A DNA stretch of 64,000 nucleotides from an uncultured Bacilli bacterium. Its GTDB lineage: Bacteria > Bacillota_I > Bacilli_A > RF39 > UBA660. The notes beneath the pieces were generated by a model, which was not told the DNA's origin, searched no databases, and worked only from the letters and a program-made list of their open reading frames with translations. The position numbers and the translations under genes are program-made. The stretch lies in the NCBI GenBank assembly GCA_934130165.1, contig CAKOXO010000005.1, forward strand, positions 6,251 to 70,250, in the 5' to 3' direction. The first letter of the stretch is position 1; the number at the start of each line of letters is the position of its first letter. Of this stretch, positions 4,063 through 59,973 are shown in pieces.

Positions 4063-5313
4063 GTGAGAAAATTAAATAATAAAGGCTTTGCTATAGGTAC
4101 AATTTTATATGGTTTATTAATAGTAATGGTACTTCTTATGTCATTATTAATGAGTACTATGGCATTTGGACGTAGCAATAGTAAAAAATATGTTGATGAA
4201 GTAATTGATAAACTAGAAATGAGATATGATACTCAAGGTAGATGTAATCTTGCCAGTGATAGCTTACAAATAATGGGATTGCCAGTTGGTGTAGAATGTA
4301 AATTATATGATTTAAGTAATAAAGAAATTGAATCAAGTAATAAATATTCCTGGACTATATATAACATATATAATCCAAACTACCCAACGCCAAAATTAAC
4401 CACAACACCTAAATTAGATAATACTGAAAACATTTATTTAATAAATTTACATGTAACACTAATACCTACAAGCAGAAAATATAAACGTGCTACAGCAAAT
4501 ATAGAAAATATAAGGTTAAAAAAAATATCAGGTAATATAGATTTAAATGGAGAAAATTCTAATACAGGAATATTCAAATCAAAAAAAGAGTGTGGAGATC
4601 AATATAACAGGTGTGATGATAGTTGGATACCTATTACAGATAAACCAAAGAAAGATGAAACTGGATTTCTATTTTACAAAGTTAATGAAAATGAGTCTCT
4701 TCCTTTTTATGTTATTGATCAAGAAAAATCTAATGGTGATATTTATTTAACACTAATTTCAGCAAAGGATATTACTCAGTCAATCTGGTATAGAGGTATT
4801 AATATAGCTGGACCAATAGCAGCAATGAATTCCCTTCAAAAAGCAACAGCATCATGGAATAATGTTTCACAAAATTCATTTAATATGGGTGTAGACGAAT
4901 TTAAAAATAACAAATTTACTGGGTGTAGTGATAATAAATGTACAAAAAATACATATACAAAAACTTTTTCTTCCCAAAAAGCTCGCTTGATTACAGTGCA
5001 AGAAGCAATGGATTTAGGTTGCAGATTTTGGAATGAAAGCAATTCACATGCGTCTTGCCCATTTTATTTGTATAACAATTTATTTTCATCTAAGAGTTAT
5101 AATGGTACTAGTAATGATACAACAGCAGGGATAGGATATTGGACAATGAATGCAGATAGCGAATATAAAAACAATGCTATAGCTATTTTTTCATCAGGTG
5201 ATATTGGTGGTAAGAATGCACACACTGGATGTTATGATTCAAATGAATGTGGCACTAATGAACACGCTAAAGGAATAAGACCTGTTATAAAAATTAAATA
5301 TACAGAAGATTAA
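4063..5313 (+). CDS. membrane-anchored Cys-rich protein with prepilin-like N-terminus (non-canonical)
   Basis: GTG start. N-terminus MRKLNNKG|FAIGTILYGLLIVMVLL resembles a prepilin leader plus hydrophobic helix but lacks Glu+5. It shares 15 identical nt (aataataaaggcttt) with the pilin gene at 24661. The C-terminal domain contains many Cys. Confidence 0.45.
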   Translation: MRKLNNKGFAIGTILYGLLIVMVLLMSLLMSTMAFGRSNSKKYVDEVIDKLEMRYDTQGRCNLASDSLQIMGLPVGVECKLYDLSNKEIESSNKYSWTIYNIYNPNYPTPKLTTTPKLDNTENIYLINLHVTLIPTSRKYKRATANIENIRLKKISGNIDLNGENSNTGIFKSKKECGDQYNRCDDSWIPITDKPKKDETGFLFYKVNENESLPFYVIDQEKSNGDIYLTLISAKDITQSIWYRGINIAGPIAAMNSLQKATASWNNVSQNSFNMGVDEFKNNKFTGCSDNKCTKNTYTKTFSSQKARLITVQEAMDLGCRFWNESNSHASCPFYLYNNLFSSKSYNGTSNDTTAGIGYWTMNADSEYKNNAIAIFSSGDIGGKNAHTGCYDSNECGTNEHAKGIRPVIKIKYTED

Positions 5314-6415: not shown

Positions 6416-8877
<2,462 letters not shown>

Positions 8878-8892
8878 TAATAAGTAACATAA

Positions 8893-8924
8893 GTGAAGTT
8901 CTAGGAAACTAGAACTTTTCACTG
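8893..8924 (+). terminator. putative terminator after dnaK
   Basis: Inverted repeat gtgaagttctag-gaaa-ctagaacttttcac. The T-run is weak. Confidence 0.45.
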
Positions 8925-8942
8925 ATATATGAAAGGATAATT

Positions 8943-10742
8943 ATGGAAATACTAACACGTAAAGAAATAAAAAAAGAAGATAAATGGAATATAGATGCGG
9001 TATATGGAAGTATTGAAGAATTTAATAATGATGTAGACTTATTAGAAAAAGAGTTAGATAAACTTGTCTATATGGAGAAAAATTTTCTTTCTAATTCAAA
9101 AGAATTTAGTAATTTTTTTATTCAGGATGAGAAAGTATCAAGATTACTTGAAAAACTTTATATTTACGCTAATTGTAAAAATGATGAGGATAAGGGAAAT
9201 AGTGTGTATCAAGAATTAAAGGGAAAAATAATTAATTTATTTGCTCTTTACAATGAAAAGACATCATCTGTTATTCCTAAAATTATACAAGAAGATACTG
9301 AAACTATTAATAGATATGTTTTAGAACAAGAGTCATTAAAACCATATAAACACTTCTTTGAAACTATTATCAATAGAAAAATTCATACTTTAGATGAAAA
9401 AGTAGAAAAAGTATTATCTATGTATCAGCCAGTTTTATCAGCCTCTGGTCAAACATCATCATATCTAACAAATGCAGATTTGAAGCTAGGGATGATTAAG
9501 GATGAAGATGGTAATGATGTTTCCTTAACAGAAGCAAATTACTCTACTTATATAAAATCACCTAATAGAGATGTTAGAAAACAAGCATTTAAGAATTTGT
9601 ATTCTGCATATAGTGGAGTTATTAATACTTTGTCATCAACATATTCAACTACTGTTAATATGGATTCTATAACCGCAAAACTTAGAAATTATGATAATTC
9701 TATTTCAATGTATTTAAATCCTAATAAAATACCAATTGAATTATATAATAATTTAATTAGTGTTGTAAGAAATAATTTAGATACTTTGTATGATTATTAT
9801 GACTTAAAGAAAGATATTTTGAATTTAGATGAATTTCATTTATATGACTCATATGCTAAAGTAATAAAGGATAATGATAGAAAGTATACTTTTGATGAAG
9901 CAAAAGATATTGTTATTAAAGCTTTAAGTGTTTATGGTGATGAGTATATTAATGTATTAAAAACGGCTTTTTCTGATGGTTGGATAGATAAATATCCTAA
10001 TAAGGGTAAAAAGTCAGGTGCATACTCTACGGGTAGTGTTGATACAATGCCTTATGTATTATTAAACTTTACTGGTGATTATAACGATGTTTCAACACTT
10101 GCTCATGAATTAGGTCATTCTATGCATTCATATTTTACAGTGAAAAATAATCCATATATAACTGCAGATTATCCTATCTTTTTAGCAGAAATCGCATCAA
10201 CTACTAATGAATTATTATTGAGTCATTATATGTATGAACATTCTACAAGTAAAGATGAAAAATTGTCTATTTTAAATGAAAAACTTGATTTATTTAAAGC
10301 AACAATTTATCGTCAAACCATGTTTGCTGAATTTGAAAAAAATGCTCATGATTATGTTGATAGTGGCAATATTCTAACGAAAGATTATTTAGATGATATG
10401 TATTATGATTTAAATAAAACATATTTTGGACCCAATGTAGTTATAGATGAAGATATAAAATATGAATGGGCTAGAATTCCACATTTCTATACTCCATTTT
10501 ACGTATATCAATATGCTACAAGTTTATCTATTTCATGTTATGTAGCTTTAAATATTATCAATAAAACTCCTGGATTTGTTGAAAAATATTTAGAATTTTT
10601 ACAATCAGGCGGAAGGGATTATCCTTTAGAAGTTTTGAAAATTATTGATGTTGATTTAAAAGATACTAAAGTATTTGAAAGTGCTTTGAAAGATTTTAAA
10701 AACACATTAGATGAATTTAAAAAAAATTATTATGAGAAGTAG
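8943..10742 (+). CDS. pepF: oligoendopeptidase F (M3B family)
   Basis: [11 protein letters not shown] HExxH zinc motif. The roughly 600 aa length and overall similarity are typical of PepF. Confidence 0.85.
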
Positions 10743-52946: not shown

Positions 52947-53057
52947 AATATTACTCCTCTCATTAATTTATATGACATTAAAAAAAATCAATTCTAAAAA
53001 ATGAATTGATTTTATACATAATTGGCTCTGTTATACTATATAAAGTAATTATCTATT

Positions 53058-53312
53058 TTAAATTGTTCTTTTCTTTATTTTTCCTAGTCTTTTACAAAAT
53101 GGCTTTGGTTTACTATACACGATATTATTAATTTTATTTTCCATTCTATTTTTGCGTTCTTCCTTTGTTTCTCCAGCTATGTAATATCCATGTGTTGTTC
53201 TAATTTTGGTTCCTTTTTTAACTCTTATAAATGATTTATCTCCACCGCCTATCATAACAGGAACTGTATCATTGCTTCTATATTTACTCATTTTATTATT
53301 TTTAAAATTCAT
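53058..53312 (-). CDS. hypothetical basic protein (84 aa)
   Basis: Strong RBS AGGAGGGTG. Lys/Arg-rich. No recognisable family. Confidence 0.5.
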   Translation of the reverse strand: MNFKNNKMSKYRSNDTVPVMIGGGDKSFIRVKKGTKIRTTHGYYIAGETKEERKNRMENKINNIVYSKPKPFCKRLGKIKKRTI

Positions 53313-53370
53313 TATATTACACCCTCCTATTTCTTATTAACTTTGACTATTTATTTTTTTAGTTTTCAAC

Positions 53371-53676
53371 TCATTTTTTTCTAATCATGTATATTTTTAC
53401 TAGAAAATATACAGCAATCACACCTAAAATTAAATAATATATCCATCCTCCCACAAACAGTAAAAGTAATCCACCTACAAACACTTCCTCAAATGCATCT
53501 GATACAGACAATGGTTCTTCTAAAGGTTCACAATCAAATATACACAAAATATTTTCATGAGTACCAACAAGTGATATTGCCTTTATGCTAAGAAATATAC
53601 CCGGAATTAGGCAAAACAATAGAATGATATTTAGTCGTTTTTGATAATATTCTTCATTTTTATCAATCTTTTTCAT
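53371..53676 (-). CDS. hypothetical small membrane protein
   Basis: Two predicted TM helices. The start is ambiguous (the track start is TTG). Lies at the edge of a 650 nt non-coding region. Confidence 0.4.
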   Translation of the reverse strand: MKKIDKNEEYYQKRLNIILLFCLIPGIFLSIKAISLVGTHENILCIFDCEPLEEPLSVSDAFEEVFVGGLLLLFVGGWIYYLILGVIAVYFLVKIYMIRKK

Positions 53677-54341
53677 AATCACCAATCCTTTTTAAATAAT
53701 ATATTTTATATATTAATGCTTGTTTTGTAAATTTTCTAATACATTTATCCATTACCAAATAGTTGTTAATCACTATACAACAATAATACTATTGTACTCT
53801 AAAAGCCATTTGTACAAATAATGATTAAAATTTTCACCTCTTAAAACCTCATATATTCTTTCTACAAAGATATCATACAACAACTAATCATTGCAGATAT
53901 TTTACGAACTTTTTTAATACTTTATATTCGATTCAATAATATAAGTAAATTTCAATTTTTTATCTGCTAAATTAACTATGTGCTAACAACAGAAATGAAC
54001 ATCAGTTACTTATTAATTTTTTAGTGCTATGTTAGGTGAATAAATTTTTTTAATCGTTAAGATATATTAAAAAAATAGGGATAATTATAAATATTATTAT
54101 ATTCCTCAAAAAATTTAATCATTTTCACTTAATTACCTTTAGTGGAAAAATTGGTTACAATTATTCAACATAAAGACTATTGCCAATATAAGTCAACAAT
54201 TTAAGTATATAGCAATCCTAAATAAAAATATTATTTATACATATAATGACCATTTTTTAGCTTTGAATTTAATATATATTCTTAGATAAATTAATCTAAT
54301 ATATGTATCATAGTAGTCTATAGCATTTTTCTAAATATCAT

Positions 54342-54366
54342 AAAAAAACTAACTATTCCTAGTTAG
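54342..54366 (-). terminator. Rho-independent terminator (copy A of a duplicated terminator)
   Basis: On the minus strand: ctaact-aggaat-agttag followed by ttttttt. Part of a 37-nt near-identical repeat also found at 56488-56524. Confidence 0.7.
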
Positions 54367-54412
54367 CAAATCTATTACTGCTTGAACAAAAAGTTCAAAC
54401 ATCATATCAATT

Positions 54413-54449
54413 TGGTGCCAGTAAGGAGCAGGTCTAACAACTCCTAGGC
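54413..54449 (-). pseudogene. degenerate tRNA-Leu 3'-end-like remnant (att-like repeat)
   Basis: The minus-strand sequence reads ...ggagttgttagacctgctccttactggcacca, ending in GCACCA, and aligns with indels to the 3' part of tRNA-Leu at 56558-56642. It is followed by the same terminator as the intact tRNA and cannot fold as a complete tRNA. Confidence 0.5.
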
Positions 54450-54528
54450 AAAAAGATGATATTAAGTAATAAACTTACTAACTAACTACATTATACACAT
54501 TAACAAAACAAAAAGAAAGTATTTTATC

Positions 54529-55614
54529 CTACTTTCTTGTTTTCTTTAATATTGGTTTTTGTTCTTTTTCAAATTTATCATATGCTAATGTTGAATATTT
54601 TTCAAATTCATAATTACTGCTTTCAGGCAATTTTGAACTTCCTAAAATACTATTATCAGTTCTTATTAATTCAATTTGCTTCTTTGCTTCTTTTAAATCT
54701 TGTTTAGTTACATTTGGATTTAATCTTAATGATATTTTAGGTGTTTTAGTTAAAATTATTTTTGCTGATTTTTTTAATTGTTCGAGAGTATATTTTGTTA
54801 CGGGAATATCATAAAAATTAACTTTATAATTATTATGGTTAACAAAAAACATTTCAACACATTGAATAGAAATTTCCTCTTTGTTTGTTTTTATAATTAA
54901 TAGAGGATTATCATAAAGCGGTATTTCAAAAGCAATGTCACTAATATCAAAATCATATATTTTTTTCTGAATGAAATCTAAAAAACATGAATCTAAATTC
55001 AAATAGTCACCAACTACATTTGATGAATTACACTGAGTTTTAATATTTTCTTTTAAACTATCAACATTTTTTTGCATATATTCCTTAATAGATTGGACTA
55101 TCTTTTCTTCACTTTCTATTTTATATTCATTTTCTTGATATATCCCACCATTCAAATTAATAAAATATACATTATTATTTGAGTATGAAGTTTTATCTAA
55201 TAATTTTTCTAATTCATCTCTTGTTCTATAACCTGTTCTTTTAAAAATTGGCATAACTTTATTAATTAATAATGCTTCATCATTATCTTTTACAGCATAA
55301 CTTTCAATAATACTACCATCGACGATTCTAATATATGGTTTATCATATTCAAATAATTGATTTGCATAAATTCTTCTGTCAAATAATCCTACTCTTGAAT
55401 AATGTGTTGGTATATTTGAATAAGGAAATTGCTTTCTTCTTTCATCTTGTAAATATTTATTAATATAATAATTAGAGTTTTTTTTGTAATGAAATAAAAT
55501 GTCATCTTGACTCAATATTGTAATCCCATCTCTATATGGTGTCATAATTTGAATACAATCATCTGCTACATAACAACTTTTTATTCTTTGTATTATTTCA
55601 TTTGTTTTTTTCAC
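54529..55614 (-). CDS. hypothetical protein (361 aa), cargo of the tRNA-flanked cassette
   Basis: Long ORF, AT-rich codon usage, no recognisable motifs. Confidence 0.5.
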   Translation of the reverse strand: MKKTNEIIQRIKSCYVADDCIQIMTPYRDGITILSQDDILFHYKKNSNYYINKYLQDERRKQFPYSNIPTHYSRVGLFDRRIYANQLFEYDKPYIRIVDGSIIESYAVKDNDEALLINKVMPIFKRTGYRTRDELEKLLDKTSYSNNNVYFINLNGGIYQENEYKIESEEKIVQSIKEYMQKNVDSLKENIKTQCNSSNVVGDYLNLDSCFLDFIQKKIYDFDISDIAFEIPLYDNPLLIIKTNKEEISIQCVEMFFVNHNNYKVNFYDIPVTKYTLEQLKKSAKIILTKTPKISLRLNPNVTKQDLKEAKKQIELIRTDNSILGSSKLPESSNYEFEKYSTLAYDKFEKEQKPILKKTRK

Positions 55615-55689
55615 GACTAAACCTCCATTAAATTTTTGTTTAATATTATAACATACTTATAACTATTTTATCACAAATTATCTTATTTT

Positions 55690-56466
55690 TTATAATTCTA
55701 AGTCGTTATTTTTCTTTTTATCTTCTTTATAATCTTTTATAATAGGCAAATCATATATTTTCTTATATTCTTTTTCAGTTATTATATTATTTTCTCTTAA
55801 ATCATTTGCAACATCTTTATATTTACTTTTTAATATATTACCAAAGAACCCTTTAACTCTTTCAGATATAAAGTCTACAATTTCATTAACTCTTCGTTTC
55901 CATGATTCTACTTTTGCTTCAAACACAATTACTTTTTTATTTAAATCTTTTATTGTATTTTTTGCTACTATTAACAAACTTTCTTTTCCTTCTAATTTTA
56001 TTTTTAAATCTTCATTATCGTTGACTAAATTTCTAATAGTCTTATAATTATCATCTAAATCTTTTTTATCAGAGGATATTATCAAATTATTTTTTGATAA
56101 AGGTTGTTGTTTTAAGTTTTCTAATATTTCTTTAACCTCATTTGATTTATCATTTATCTTATCTACATTTTTATTTATTTCAGTTATTTTCTTATGTTGC
56201 TTGTTATAAGAATCTTTTAGTTTTATTTTCTCATTATAGCCATTTATAAAGACTTCTTCACTTTCTTCTAGTATTAAGTAATCATTTTCTTTAACTTTTA
56301 AAATGTGGAGTTTTGCATAGGCAATATTAGTGTTTTTAATTGATTTAATATTACCTGGTATAAATTCATATTTAACACAAGCAAACCGACATATCATATC
56401 TATCTTTCTATTAAGTTCATCACTTATTTTCAAATCTTTAGTTTCTATCTCAAACATAATCATCAC
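55690..56466 (-). CDS. hypothetical protein (258 aa) with N-terminal globular region and long coiled-coil
   Basis: Long ORF. Residues 90-200 are heptad-like (Lys/Glu/Asn-rich). No known family. Confidence 0.5.
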   Translation of the reverse strand: MMIMFEIETKDLKISDELNRKIDMICRFACVKYEFIPGNIKSIKNTNIAYAKLHILKVKENDYLILEESEEVFINGYNEKIKLKDSYNKQHKKITEINKNVDKINDKSNEVKEILENLKQQPLSKNNLIISSDKKDLDDNYKTIRNLVNDNEDLKIKLEGKESLLIVAKNTIKDLNKKVIVFEAKVESWKRRVNEIVDFISERVKGFFGNILKSKYKDVANDLRENNIITEKEYKKIYDLPIIKDYKEDKKKNNDLEL

Positions 56467-56487
56467 TCATCATTTCGTTTTAAGCAG

Positions 56488-56512
56488 AAAAAAACTAACT
56501 ATTTCTAGTTAG
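56488..56512 (-). terminator. Rho-independent terminator downstream of tRNA-Leu (copy B)
   Basis: On the minus strand: ctaact-agaaat-agttag followed by ttttttt. Confidence 0.7.
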
Positions 56513-56557
56513 TAATCTATTACTTAAACTCAGGGATTGTCCGAGTATCAATCAATA

Positions 56558-56642
56558 TGGTGCGGGTAACAGGAGTTGAACCTGCAAGGGTTGCCCCACT
56601 AGATCCTAAGTCTAGCGCGTCTGCCAATTCCGCCATACCCGC
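56558..56642 (-). tRNA. tRNA-Leu (anticodon TAG)
   Basis: Minus-strand sequence GCGGGTATGGCGGAATTGGCAGACGCGCTAGACTTAGGATCTAGTGGGGCAACCCTTGCAGGTTCAACTCCTGTTACCCGCACCA. It has a 7-bp acceptor stem, an anticodon stem CTAGA/TCTAG with loop CTTAGGA, a long variable arm, a T-loop TTCAACT and an encoded CCA. Confidence 0.9.
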
Positions 56643-56651
56643 AATAAAAAA

Positions 56652-56728
56652 TGGTGGACCCTATTGGACTCGAACCAATGACCGTTCGGTTATGAGCCGA
56701 ATGCTCTAACCAACTGAGCTAAGGGTCC
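56652..56728 (-). tRNA. tRNA-Met (anticodon CAT; elongator Met or Ile2-lysidine type)
   Basis: Minus-strand sequence GGACCCTTAGCTCAGTTGGTTAGAGCATTCGGCTCATAACCGAACGGTCATTGGTTCGAGTCCAATAGGGTCCACCA. It folds as a cloverleaf with a TTCGAGT T-loop and an encoded CCA. The anticodon stem lacks the initiator-type GGG/CCC. Confidence 0.9.
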
Positions 56729-57339: not shown

Positions 57340-58599
57340 TTAGTTTTTATCACTATTATATTTCCAATTTAATTGCTTTTTATATACTTTATTTTTACTA
57401 ATATCTCGCAAATCGAGATTATAGTTATTACCATCATTTAACTTTCTTAATGCTACATCTTTAAAAATGCTTACAGATGCATCTTCATCAGTTACTTTAT
57501 TTACAAGTTTGTAAGTTAAATATCTTTGGTAGTTTTCTTCTGTTTTAGCATCATATAATTTATTAAGTTTTACCTTTTCTTTTTTTGTTAAACTGTTAAC
57601 TCCTTTGGTGTTGTTACACATTATTTGCATAGCATCTATAATAGATTTAACAGATAAATAAGAATTAGAAATATTAGTTTTTCCCCTAAAATCATTTCTA
57701 ACCATTTTAAAGAATATATTGGCAAGTTTTTTCTTTCTACTAAAACTATTTTCTCTATTAAATTTAATTAGTGCATTCTCATATTTATAATAAACTTCCC
57801 TAGATTTTATATTTTGAATTAATGTGTTTGTAGAAAATGATTCAACCTGTACTATACGATATTTAATATCTTCTTTAATAGCAGCTTTATAGTTTTCTTT
57901 TAAAGATAAAACATCTAACTCACCATCCAAATAAATATCATTCATTTGTTCCTCGTCTAGCATATTAAACATTAAATATTCACTTTCTATCTCTTCATAT
58001 GAATGAGCTAGCTTTTGATTTTTATAGTTATATCTATTAGCTAAGAAAACATTATAATCCTTAAGACTTCTCCAAATATTAGAAATATATTTACTTTTAT
58101 TTAAATTAATGTTTCTCATTGCTAAAATTTCATATACATTACTATATTCATCAGCTGATTTCATTTTTCTTAAATAATCTTGTTCATTTCGATTTCTATT
58201 AAAAATGAAATCATACACATCTACCATTCGTAATTTTCCTTCTGTATTACTAAAAATTATTGCAATAAGTGCTGAATATAGGGCTAATTTTTTTATTCCA
58301 ATATGTTTTACAGTTATATCTGGTGCCTTTGTTTTAAAAGAATCTTTTTCTTTTTCAGTGCCCTTTTTTGTATCAAACTCTGCTACTTTTTTTAAAAGTT
58401 CCGTTTTAGTTAAAAATAATACATTATTTTTAACCCTAGAGTCAGACAATGATTTAATATTTTCTTGATTGCAGTATTCCTTTATTTTCTCCTTGCCTAT
58501 GTTTTCTGTAGTTTTTTGTATTTTATTATCACTATAGATTATTATTGATTTTCTCTTTTGGTTATCAGTATAAAATACTATCTGTTTTATTTTTTTCAT
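57340..58599 (-). CDS. hypothetical protein (419 aa)
   Basis: Long ORF, Lys/Asn-rich, no recognisable catalytic motifs. Confidence 0.5.
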   Translation of the reverse strand: MKKIKQIVFYTDNQKRKSIIIYSDNKIQKTTENIGKEKIKEYCNQENIKSLSDSRVKNNVLFLTKTELLKKVAEFDTKKGTEKEKDSFKTKAPDITVKHIGIKKLALYSALIAIIFSNTEGKLRMVDVYDFIFNRNRNEQDYLRKMKSADEYSNVYEILAMRNINLNKSKYISNIWRSLKDYNVFLANRYNYKNQKLAHSYEEIESEYLMFNMLDEEQMNDIYLDGELDVLSLKENYKAAIKEDIKYRIVQVESFSTNTLIQNIKSREVYYKYENALIKFNRENSFSRKKKLANIFFKMVRNDFRGKTNISNSYLSVKSIIDAMQIMCNNTKGVNSLTKKEKVKLNKLYDAKTEENYQRYLTYKLVNKVTDEDASVSIFKDVALRKLNDGNNYNLDLRDISKNKVYKKQLNWKYNSDKN

Positions 58600-58607
58600 T
58601 AGACTTC

Positions 58608-59900
58608 CTACTTCTTTAATTCCTTTTTGCCAGAGTACTTGTAACCATTATTCAATAAATATTTATTATCATAACTTGACCAAACATAAGAATATGAATT
58701 TAAAATATTTCTTGTTCTAGTCATTTTAGTACATATTTCCTCATTTTGAGATACAGTTATATTTTCTGCTTGATATGAATAACTATCTACCATTTTACTA
58801 ATATAACCATTACCGCAATAACTATTATAAGTGATACCATTATAAACATATTTATCAAAATATATTTCTCTATTTACAGATTTATTATTTAGAGTCTTAT
58901 TATATACATATTTTGTATTTAACGTATCTTTTGGTGGATAGGAATATTTTTCTGTTGATATATAGTTCCAATTACTAAGATTTGAATAATCGGATGAGAC
59001 TTTATATAAAGTATTATTGAATGAGATATAATCATATCCTTGGCATACTTTTAATAAATTAGAACCTACCTTTTTTATAGAAATTTTATTTAAATTAAAA
59101 AATTGTTTATTATTTTGTTTTTCTATTTTTTCCTCTTTTAGGCATATACTATCACTTTCACAATTAATATTAGTCGCAGAACATGAGATTATTCCGCTAT
59201 TAACCCAAGGGGACCATGAACTATACAAAATACTATTTTCCTTAACATACTGATATATATATTCTCTATTTGTAGTATCAACTATTTCAATACTACCTTT
59301 GTATGTTGTTATACGTCGTTTTTTTGTGGTTTTCTTTGCTTGAGATATTGATTGACTTGTTTTTTTAGTTGATTCTACATCATCATCTTCACTTGTATTT
59401 TCATTTTCTATTAAAGTTTCTTTATTTTGTTTTTTATTGTTATCTTTTTCACATAAAAATGTAGAACAAGTTCCATTATCTTCTAATTTTACTAAAATAT
59501 AATCTTTATCTTTATTGCATTTTAAAAATATTTTCATTTCATAACTAATAGTTGATGTTTTTCTCAAAGTTACGTATGAAGAAGTAGAATTACATGTTTT
59601 ATTGTTTGAGTCTTTTATAACCAATTTTTTATTTATTTCTTTTAAAGTAATCTTTTTATTAGAATCTATTATATCTTGAATATTTTCTTCAGTAAAATAT
59701 TTTAATGCCTCTTTTTTTATTGCTTGCAAATTATCAGAAAGAGTTTTAGCAGCATTTTTTTGATAATTTGAATTATTATTTTTAGAATTTTCTTTTCTTG
59801 TACATAAAAATACCACTAAAAACAAAGCTAAAATAATAATCATAAGTTTTATAAAAAAACGGCTTACTGGAAATAATTTTTCTCTATAACTATAATTCAT
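58608..59900 (-). CDS. hypothetical membrane-anchored, Cys/Asn/Tyr-rich extracytoplasmic protein
   Basis: ATG at 59900 with RBS GGAGAGGT 5 nt upstream (the track start lies further upstream). N-terminal TM FFIKLMIIILALFLVVFLC. The mature part contains about 20 Cys and many NxS/T and Tyr residues. Confidence 0.5.
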   Translation of the reverse strand: MNYSYREKLFPVSRFFIKLMIIILALFLVVFLCTRKENSKNNNSNYQKNAAKTLSDNLQAIKKEALKYFTEENIQDIIDSNKKITLKEINKKLVIKDSNNKTCNSTSSYVTLRKTSTISYEMKIFLKCNKDKDYILVKLEDNGTCSTFLCEKDNNKKQNKETLIENENTSEDDDVESTKKTSQSISQAKKTTKKRRITTYKGSIEIVDTTNREYIYQYVKENSILYSSWSPWVNSGIISCSATNINCESDSICLKEEKIEKQNNKQFFNLNKISIKKVGSNLLKVCQGYDYISFNNTLYKVSSDYSNLSNWNYISTEKYSYPPKDTLNTKYVYNKTLNNKSVNREIYFDKYVYNGITYNSYCGNGYISKMVDSYSYQAENITVSQNEEICTKMTRTRNILNSYSYVWSSYDNKYLLNNGYKYSGKKELKK

Positions 59901-59973
59901 AACTACCTCTCCTATCAAGTTATTTATACTACCATTATTAGTCTCTAAAGTCAATAATAGCAAAGAAAAACAA

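Follow-up and report, generated by a model that had tools for sequence, protein, structure and literature searches.

Our comparative analysis of a 64-kb window of AT-rich DNA (26% G+C) from an uncultured gut bacterium concerns a two-gene cassette at positions 54413-56557, directly downstream of a minus-strand tRNA-Leu(UAG) gene. The cassette derives very probably from an integrative and mobilizable element (IME) through an internal deletion and fits the description of a cis-mobilizable element (CIME). The comparisons described here directly support its boundaries, its parentage and the deletion, and they show its ends recurring at many sites and, for a sibling element, a site that is still empty. 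A first-pass annotation, made from the sequence alone, had seen two genes between direct repeats of a tRNA 3' end and its terminator, and had proposed either an integration or a decayed tRNA duplication, with a novel functional module as cargo; part of that picture stands and part is replaced below. Contigs with which the window was compared are labelled L followed by a number; relatives of the source bacterium were deposited as "Bacilli bacterium" metagenome-assembled genomes (MAGs), Clostridium sp. CAG:433 and Candidatus Faecisoma.

The upstream boundary is set by cassette-less strains of the same species, recognized by contigs encoding an identical 139-aa flanking protein. Identity to these strains (blastn) is 98-99% and ends exactly at 56558, the last base of the CCA of tRNA-Leu, a gene whose annotation was confirmed by ARAGORN and Rfam. 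As had been suggested, the insertion thus adjoins the tRNA-Leu 3' end, and the flanking repeats delimit an element. The proximal hairpin, however, had been taken for the terminator of tRNA-Leu itself, and is instead the left end of the element. In the cassette-less strains tRNA-Leu carries another two-hairpin trailer, and the hairpin in the window is therefore not the ancestral one; moreover, 563 nt from 56562 to 56001, covering the trailer and the start of the 258-aa open reading frame (ORF), are 98% identical to the sequence after the CCA of tmRNA genes in L024-L028. The window-type left end also follows tRNA-less pseudo-ends ("...ATCGCACCA") in L029 and L089. A census of left ends yielded 14 distinct upstream contexts, every one ending in [C/G]CACCA: tRNA-Leu(UAG), four tmRNA variants, tRNA-Thr(CGU), another tRNA and seven element termini.

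The opposite end behaves in the same way. The right-end block is 86-92% identical to the right ends of L024, L095, L088, L104, L109 and L096, and the homology halts exactly after ...GG(C/T)ACCA. An exact-match scan found a 24-nt core of this end in 24 metagenome contigs; in all 24 CACCA comes next, and the trailers beyond it are of at least 15 unrelated kinds. The sequence at 54413-54449, read at first as a degenerate copy of the tRNA-Leu 3' end, is therefore the element's own terminus.

The parentage of the cassette is evident from L095, an intact relative in which tRNA-Thr(CGU) is followed by the trailer, a 93-aa ORF (orf93), a large serine recombinase (LSR) of 627 aa, a MobV relaxase of 458 aa, a homolog 91% identical to the 361-aa protein of the window (p361) and the right end, which is adjoined by the next element. 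The LSR combines PF00239, PF07508 and PF13408 (Resolvase, Recombinase and Zn-ribbon) and is CcrB/XisF-like, with scores far below the cut-offs of the NCBIfam models for CcrB, CcrC and CcrA (124 bits against 900 for CcrB). Three blocks align the window with L095: 56587-56211 with 4267-4641 (91%, blastn), 56223-56059 with 7671-7835 (96%, blastn) and 56067-54413 with 7923-9604 (92%). The window lacks 3,029 bp of L095, comprising the end of the 93-aa ORF, the whole LSR and relaxase residues 1-249; an in-frame 87-bp stretch of L095 is absent as well.

The 258-aa ORF accordingly consists of orf93 residues 1-85 followed by MobV/Mob_Pre residues 250-458 (tblastn with the L095 proteins). Homologs of its C-terminal part are full-length PF01076 proteins, yet the fusion ORF lacks the HxDE...PHxH region present in the proteins P0138 and P0155, retains only the coiled-coil Mob tail and matches no Pfam or NCBIfam model, including those of the relaxase domain (PF01076/NF041497). 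Identical breakpoints occur in the tmRNA copies of L024-L028 and in L029, and therefore one deletion derivative is present at at least three sites. Lacking the relaxase catalytic domain, the fusion ORF is a remnant made by the deletion and not a cargo gene. The coordinates of all features are given in Table 1.

Table 1. Features of the cassette and its surroundings, in window coordinates.
Feature	Position	Strand	Remarks
tRNA-Met(CAU)	56652-56728	-	co-oriented upstream partner of tRNA-Leu; ARAGORN and Rfam
tRNA-Leu(UAG)	56558-56642	-	host target; ARAGORN and Rfam
Left junction (attL) of inserted element	56558		tRNA-Leu 3' CCA
Left end ("trailer") of element	56478-56557	-	about 11 nt TATTGATTGAT, then hairpin 1, hairpin 2 and U-run
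Left-end hairpins	56528-56546 (hairpin 1); 56488-56513 (hairpin 2 and U-run)		proximal "terminator" of the first-pass annotation
Fusion ORF	55690-56457	-	255 aa from ATG at 56457; 258 aa from GTG at 56466
Deletion junction	56211-56223	-	13-nt overlap of two L095-aligned blocks (blastn)
Promoter-like site upstream of p361	55645-55674		extended -10-like
p361 ORF	54529-55614	-	361 aa; last gene of element, in slot between mob and right end
Conserved right end of element	54413-54520	-	terminus GGAGTTGTTAGACCTGCTCCTTACTGGCACCA (54413-54444), tRNA-minihelix-like
Right junction (attR)	after 54413		
Distal trailer	54332-54412	-	AATTGATATGATG; second "terminator" copy of the first-pass annotation
Distal-trailer hairpins	54379-54401 (hairpin 1); 54341-54367 (hairpin 2 and U-run)		
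Remaining strain-variable island	53016-54331	-	blastn against L014-L023
AT-rich non-coding stretch	53686-54331		about 650 nt, 20% G+C
Membrane-like ORF	53371-53685		104/101 aa
84-aa ORF	53058-53312		

Could the two ORFs nevertheless form a functional module (toxin-antitoxin, defense or adaptation) imported as cargo, as the annotation envisaged? Both are present where it placed them, intact and in the same orientation; among strains, conservation of the fusion ORF is 97-100%, and it gives weak PADLOC matches to the coiled-coil regions of LmuB and DruC. We consider such a module very unlikely. The 255/258-aa ORF arose from two element genes by an in-frame deletion, its PADLOC matches are to low-complexity coiled coil with E above 1e-3, and elsewhere it is paired with a different neighbor, p358; further-decayed forms of 153, 176 and 223 aa exist. 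Furthermore, p361 is found without the fusion ORF in most of the 52 genomes that encode it, so that the co-occurrence data argue against a joint function. The dN/dS ratios (0.22-0.48 for p361, 0.45-0.49 for the mob remnant) are only mildly informative; for p361 they suggest that the gene is under some constraint. Because of the orf93-Mob fusion, the database relatives of this ORF mix full-length PF01076 proteins with shorter or chimeric forms. Chimeras recorded among them are P0173, P0190, P0193, P0126 and P0127; P0173 joins the orf93 N-terminus to a serine-recombinase C-terminus, P0193 joins it to a Mob_Pre domain, and P0190 combines a Resolvase N-terminus with Mob_Pre. Deletions that run from one element gene into another thus seem to recur, although some chimeras could be assembly artefacts.

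These features are those by which a CIME is defined. The cassette is flanked by attL and attR, each end being 86-98% identical to its counterparts in intact and other copies. Genes of its own for recombination and transfer have been lost: with Pfam and NCBIfam, neither a Resolvase, Recombinase or Phage_integrase domain nor PF01076 was detected in either cassette ORF, and no homolog of the family's serine recombinase is encoded in the whole window, in agreement with the absence of an integrase reported by the annotation. Its origin from an IME by deletion is recorded in the three-block alignment around the gap. Having neither a site-specific recombinase of its own nor a relaxase catalytic domain, the cassette is no autonomous IME, and an oriT was not identified in it. 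The same derivative, with identical breakpoints, is found at tRNA-Leu, at tmRNA genes and after the ends of other elements, an indirect sign that the recombinase of a related element may be able to excise or move it.

Insertion can be followed in a sibling IME of 6.6 kb in L013 (186-6788), which lies after tRNA-Thr(GGU), ends in ...CTATCGCACCA and encodes, in order, proteins of 90 and 70 aa, an LSR, an 82-aa protein, Mob_Pre, a 374-aa protein and Abi_2. In L049 (about position 2788), tRNA-Thr(GGU)...GGCACCA is followed by GATTTAGATAAT..., exactly what follows the right end of the L013 IME. L049 is therefore an empty site, and insertion occurred in or beside the shared GCACCA. The sequence common to the L013 and L049 junctions is GCACCA only, and a repeat search of L013 gave no IME ends because this 6-nt core is all that they share. 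Element-after-element arrays were also seen in L029, L089, L090, L095 and L063, and in L011 an IME is separated from tRNA-Leu(CAA) by a recombinase-less unit A (an acetyltransferase and two ORFs), with the same kind of delimitation for each unit. Unit A has a trailer and a CGCACCA terminus, the same architecture in different sequences, with neither LSR nor Mob.

Which enzyme carries out the insertion? An LSR is present in L095, L088, L104, L096 and L013, every intact unit has one, and L096 has both ends and an LSR without Mob. The ends thus accompany the recombinase and not the relaxase, from which we infer that the LSR is the integrase, with a crossover probably inside GCACCA. Alternatively, the MobV relaxase, an HUH-type enzyme, might insert the element after CCA through an oriT-like nick, like relaxase or IS200/IS91 single-strand integration. 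The element sits precisely 3' of CACCA, ends in CACCA and has subterminal hairpins, an anatomy reminiscent of HUH transposons, and the left-end hairpins just upstream of the first ORF could hold an oriT. This route is nonetheless improbable in view of the same ends without Mob in L096, the same architecture without Mob in unit A of L011, the LSR in every intact unit and the precedent of serine-recombinase islands at a tmRNA 3' end (PMC3146451).

The family as a whole can be described as follows. Its elements are found right behind a tRNA or tmRNA gene, starting at the CCA, or behind an earlier element that ends in CACCA, and in this way they build tandem arrays. Insertion parts the tRNA from what used to lie downstream of it, and the element supplies a two-hairpin trailer and U-run in place of the lost sequence; this trailer probably acts as a replacement terminator for the tRNA operon and shields the element's genes, and in that role the left end would stay under selection. 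The parent type comprises the left-end trailer, the 93-aa ORF, the LSR (627 aa), MobV (about 460 aa), one or more cargo genes and a right end of about 110 nt terminating in ...GGCACCA. In the window copy, a 3.0-kb deletion has removed the LSR and the relaxase catalytic domain and fused the first ORF to the relaxase tail, leaving both ends and the cargo p361; the recombinase-less cassette may still be moved in trans.

The repeat that drew attention to the locus is real. Positions 54339-54379 and 56485-56524 align over about 40 nt with three mismatches and one indel, for a local alignment score of 60, whereas random 74-mers from the window average 15 (s.d. 2.9) with a maximum of 35, and none of 5,000 reaches 60. 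Each copy is hairpin 2 plus the U-run of an approximately 80-nt two-hairpin unit of the same structure, with fold z-scores of -4.2 (left end) and -4.5 (distal). A simple terminator scan calls neither hairpin copy, since the AT-rich stems hold just two G-C pairs each. The tRNA-like piece, for its part, finishes in GGCACCA, spaced from its hairpin just as the genuine tRNA end is from its own, and can be folded on paper into a small acceptor/T-arm-like minihelix with a 3' CCA, a fold that is not statistically significant. Its alignment to the tRNA-Leu 3' end (CTCC--TTACnnGCACCA) is weak, with a score of 15 that is equalled by 2% of random 41-mers, and neither ARAGORN nor Rfam gave a tRNA match at 54413-54449. 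Judged by these comparisons, the piece is a conserved element terminus and no copy of tRNA-Leu, and the host tRNA end and the terminus share just the junction core GCACCA. This also accounts for the terminator part being better conserved than the tRNA part, which had seemed unusual: the two hairpins are homologous element left ends, while of the two "tRNA parts" one belongs to a host tRNA and the other is the terminus of an element. A partial tandem duplication of the tRNA-Leu 3' end and its terminator, followed by decay with genes trapped in between, would explain why the two units are alike in spacing and share a hairpin. It is rejected as extremely unlikely, given that the tRNA-like piece is 86-92% identical to termini beside other tRNAs and tmRNA and only weakly similar to tRNA-Leu, that the hairpin is element-borne and that both repeat components occur at unrelated loci.

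What, then, is the second hairpin unit, beyond the right end? The distal trailer belongs to the same subfamily as the element's own left end, and this subfamily accompanies the element in L036, L090 and L093. As it is also unlike the trailer of the cassette-less strains, the distal trailer most likely represents what is left of an older sibling element, namely its left end, the body having decayed; a tblastx search of the AT-rich spacer (53681-54345) found no gene remnants. In a competing view, there was a single simple insertion, and the distal hairpin is the displaced original trailer of tRNA-Leu (attB'), which predicts a strain in which tRNA-Leu...GCACCA is joined to AATTGATATGATGTTTGAAC with no cassette. 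The geometry is exactly that of attL and attR, gene remnants are lacking after the distal trailer, and the attL and attR of the window share GCACCAnATTGAT, longer than the 6-nt core at other junctions. We regard this view as possible though doubtful, as cassette-less strains of the species carry a different trailer after tRNA-Leu, the distal-trailer subfamily moves with the element at tmRNA and other sites, and 53016-54412 is only 75-78% identical to other strains or cannot be aligned to them.

Several points weigh against the interpretation of the cassette as a CIME derived from an IME. No recombinase activity, excision product or circular junction was observed. The expected attP would be ...CTTACTGGCACCA joined to TATTGATTGATACTCGG..., the expected circle junction ...GACCTGCTCCTTACTGGCACCA joined to TATTGATTGATACTCGGACAATCC..., and the chromosomal site restored after excision ...CTCCTGTTACCCGCACCA joined to AATTGATATGATGTTTGAAC.... 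In L090 (VOFC01001815.1, 208 kb, about positions 1117-1250), a right end ...CTTACTGGCACCA is joined straight to a window-type left end (GAATGATTGATACTCGGACAATCTCTGAG...CTAACTAGAAATAGTTAG), a head-to-tail tandem that matches the sequence expected of attP; the joint lies within a 208-kb contig and therefore represents a tandem array, not a circle. Homologous recombination between related resident elements, and not mobilization in trans, could have brought the same derivative to several sites. According to a 2017 review, serine-recombinase IMEs usually reside inside protein genes, making specificity for tRNA ends atypical. Dyad symmetry at the att sites reaches at best 12-14 matches in 30, at varying centers and near the background of AT-rich DNA. 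Finally, the empty-site comparison that the annotation had called for succeeded in part: the cassette is absent after tRNA-Leu in other strains, but a search for an empty site that has the distal flank of the window itself failed, the 101-aa allele occurring only in contigs that hold the cassette or are interrupted close to it.

The remaining gene, p361, is intact. Its family, an orphan one with proteins of about 300-320 aa, counts 122 homologs at 90% clustering, 402 clusters at 50% identity and 52 species-level genomes. The family has strongly conserved motifs (e.g., INKYLEDERRKQFPYSNIPTHY), and its invariant residues include Y, R, D, H and C, among them Y54, D57, R59, Y65 and H71. The structure prediction proposed by the annotation gave a confident AlphaFold model (pLDDT 83.8, pTM 0.78), for which neither the whole predicted structure nor its beta-rich N-domain matched a solved fold beyond generic noise; recombinase, nuclease and DNA-binding folds showed no structural similarity. 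Pfam, NCBIfam, PHROGs and PADLOC, applied to both ORFs and the genes around them, yielded no match to p361, a scan of all 37 alignment members revealed no consistent weak family, and a PDB sequence-profile search gave no match. The impression that the two proteins resemble nothing recognizable hence holds for p361, with no family or fold match, and fails for the 258-aa ORF, a MobV relaxase remnant; likewise, the PADLOC check that had been suggested returned nothing for p361 and, for the 258-aa ORF, only the weak matches described above.

Ten or more different tRNA and tmRNA genes have a p361 homolog a short way downstream, in most cases closing the gene order ahead of the right-end motif AAAAGTTGTAGATAAC...CGCACCA. 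In L039, a whole diverged element (orf93, LSR, Mob and p361, 37-49% identity) follows the same tRNA-Met/tRNA-Leu(UAG) pair. Siblings with the same ends and an 87-97% identical recombinase hold other genes in the cargo slot: AbiD/Abi_2 in L088 and L104, KilA-N (PADLOC PDC-S22) in L096, HipA_2 with DUF3037 (PDC-M66A/B) in L109, and an unrelated 358-aa protein in L024. Across the sibling slots and L013 5524-6498, the cargo also includes several unannotated proteins of 177-634 aa. From this distribution, p361 is exchangeable cargo, dispensable for the ends, in a slot enriched for defense genes. We suppose that it benefits the host, possibly in defense; a role in defense or abortive infection (Abi) specifically is a tentative suggestion drawn from gene position. 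More speculative still, and rather unlikely in all its parts together, is a scenario in which p361 is a new-fold, single-gene anti-phage or Abi effector, the LSR family shuttles it among tRNA and tmRNA CCA ends by recognizing a generic acceptor/T-arm, and the cassette is still moved in trans.

Another role for p361, as a novel factor for recombination or maintenance by which small cassettes are tied to tRNA 3' ends, would suit its position after at least 10 tRNA and tmRNA genes, its co-divergence with the orf93-LSR-Mob backbone in all four genes of L039 and its invariant residues. We give this little credence: identical ends enclose other cargo and no p361 in L024, L088, L096, L104 and L109, the fold resembles no recombinase, nuclease or DNA-binding protein, and the intact parent already encodes a recombinase. 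A further reading, p361 as a syntenic core gene, was dropped because its homologs occur downstream of so many different tRNA and tmRNA genes. It had come from the more distant MAGs L030 (6659-7957), L053 and L059, in which a tRNA-Met/tRNA-Leu(UAG) pair is inverted and has a p361 homolog upstream of it, adjoining homologs of the window's 139-aa and PfkB genes. This arrangement points either to inversion of the two tRNA genes or to an ancient insertion that became fixed in the same neighborhood. In L113 (972-2056, a Logan assembly), an otherwise 99.8% identical p361 is split into ORFs of 74 and 241 aa by a 1-nt indel, reflecting either pseudogenization in one strain or an assembly error. Three contigs with p361 homologs (L038, L043 and L066) are labelled "uncultured Muribaculaceae bacterium" MAGs; all other matches are in Bacilli-type MAGs, and these three are therefore probably mis-binned.

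The cassette is part of a wider variable stretch of one species, 53016-56557, between tRNA-Leu and a LysM gene (L014-L023). Identity of 98% to the cassette-less strains returns only from 53015 (blastn, L014-L023), and the gene content between tRNA-Leu and this point differs by strain: 192 and 85 aa, 151-152 aa, 41 aa or, in a further variant, 192, 37 and 116 aa with a HAD hydrolase and 85 aa. Small ORFs common to the strains (104/116/151 aa and 84/85 aa) are 75-78% identical, as against 98-99% for the flanks. An integron-like array across the whole locus was considered and rejected, since the strain-variable genes of L018 lack CCA-and-trailer module boundaries. Upstream of the tRNAs, at 57340-59963 on the minus strand, two large ORFs (419 and 451 aa) are conserved in all strains examined, and neither has a Pfam match above threshold. 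The antisense strand of tRNA-Met (56654-56728, plus strand) gives a sub-threshold Rfam match to the Plastid-ycf2 5'UTR (34 bits against a gathering score of 65.7), which is almost certainly spurious.

How does this family relate to known systems? SCCmec and pseudo-SCC elements (SCC, staphylococcal cassette chromosome) use the LSRs CcrAB or CcrC at the 3' end of rlmH/orfX, and SCC elements have no relaxase. They resemble the window family in being LSR cassettes at a conserved gene's 3' end that form tandems and include ccr-less cassettes with retained flanking repeats; they differ in target and host, and the L095 recombinase, by the CcrB score given above, is no Ccr ortholog. The clostridial IMEs Tn4451 and Tn4453 encode the LSR TnpX and the Mob/Pre-type TnpZ; Tn4451 carries catP and uses loosely defined sites with a GA crossover, not tRNA ends. 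Like the window family, Tn4451 is a small mobilizable element with an LSR, a Mob_Pre-family relaxase and short cargo, and unlike it, Tn4451 has neither a tRNA-like terminus nor a terminator-bearing left end; it has been cited as a serine-recombinase IME (PMC5704250). Classical tRNA and tmRNA islands depend on a tyrosine integrase and create a second copy of a genuine tRNA segment, about 15-60 nt long (Islander, PMC4383910). They share with the window the tRNA 3' target, the intact tRNA and a tRNA-like fragment at the far end; in the window, that fragment is the element's own terminus, sharing only GCACCA, and the recombinase of the family is of the serine type.

CIMEs and tandem accretion were defined on ICESt1/ICESt3 of Streptococcus thermophilus (Pavlovic 2004, Bellanger 2011, via PMC5704250). 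The window cassette likewise adjoins related elements in a tandem that occupies a single target, a conserved gene's 3' end. Its parent is an IME with LSR and MobV, whereas ICESt1 and ICESt3 are integrative and conjugative elements with a tyrosine integrase; in the window family the junction falls right at the terminal CCA of a wide range of tRNA and tmRNA genes, and the remnant's mobility is presumed from its distribution. The closest described analogue is provided by the ssrA islands of Dehalococcoides, in which the CcrB-like serine recombinase DsiB, tandem units after tmRNA, 3'-end repeats, recombinase-less units and cargo have been reported (PMC3146451). As in the window family, these are serine-recombinase, IME-like elements stacked downstream of an RNA gene with accessory cargo. 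The islands insert in the T-loop with a 20-bp repeat at a single target, their integrase lying beside attL on the reverse strand (PMC3146451), whereas the window family uses a core of about 6 nt, GCACCA, at the CCA end of at least three tRNA species and several tmRNA genes, and has a MobV relaxase. No description of a small serine-recombinase/MobV element family of uncultured gut Bacilli was found in the literature searched.

The feature in the window is an ordinary decayed mobile element and should not be read as a new two-gene system. Its value is that the locus exposes a family that lies after the CCA of several tRNAs and of tmRNA, brings its own terminator and bears a tRNA-like mimic at its end. 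Compared with the IME review, LSRs at tRNA CCA ends appear unusual, and generic recognition of tRNA ends, if true, would be an uncommon LSR specificity of possible use in genome engineering. With stacked arrays and AbiD, PDC-S22, HipA/DUF3037 (PDC-M66) or unrecognized genes in the slot, the elements behave like compact shuttles of defense genes. Being the commonest occupant of the slot, with a confident model and no known fold, p361 is a reasonable candidate for defense screening. The leads of value are thus two: a family of serine-recombinase IMEs at the CCA ends of tRNA and tmRNA genes, and the fold-orphan p361 that it carries.

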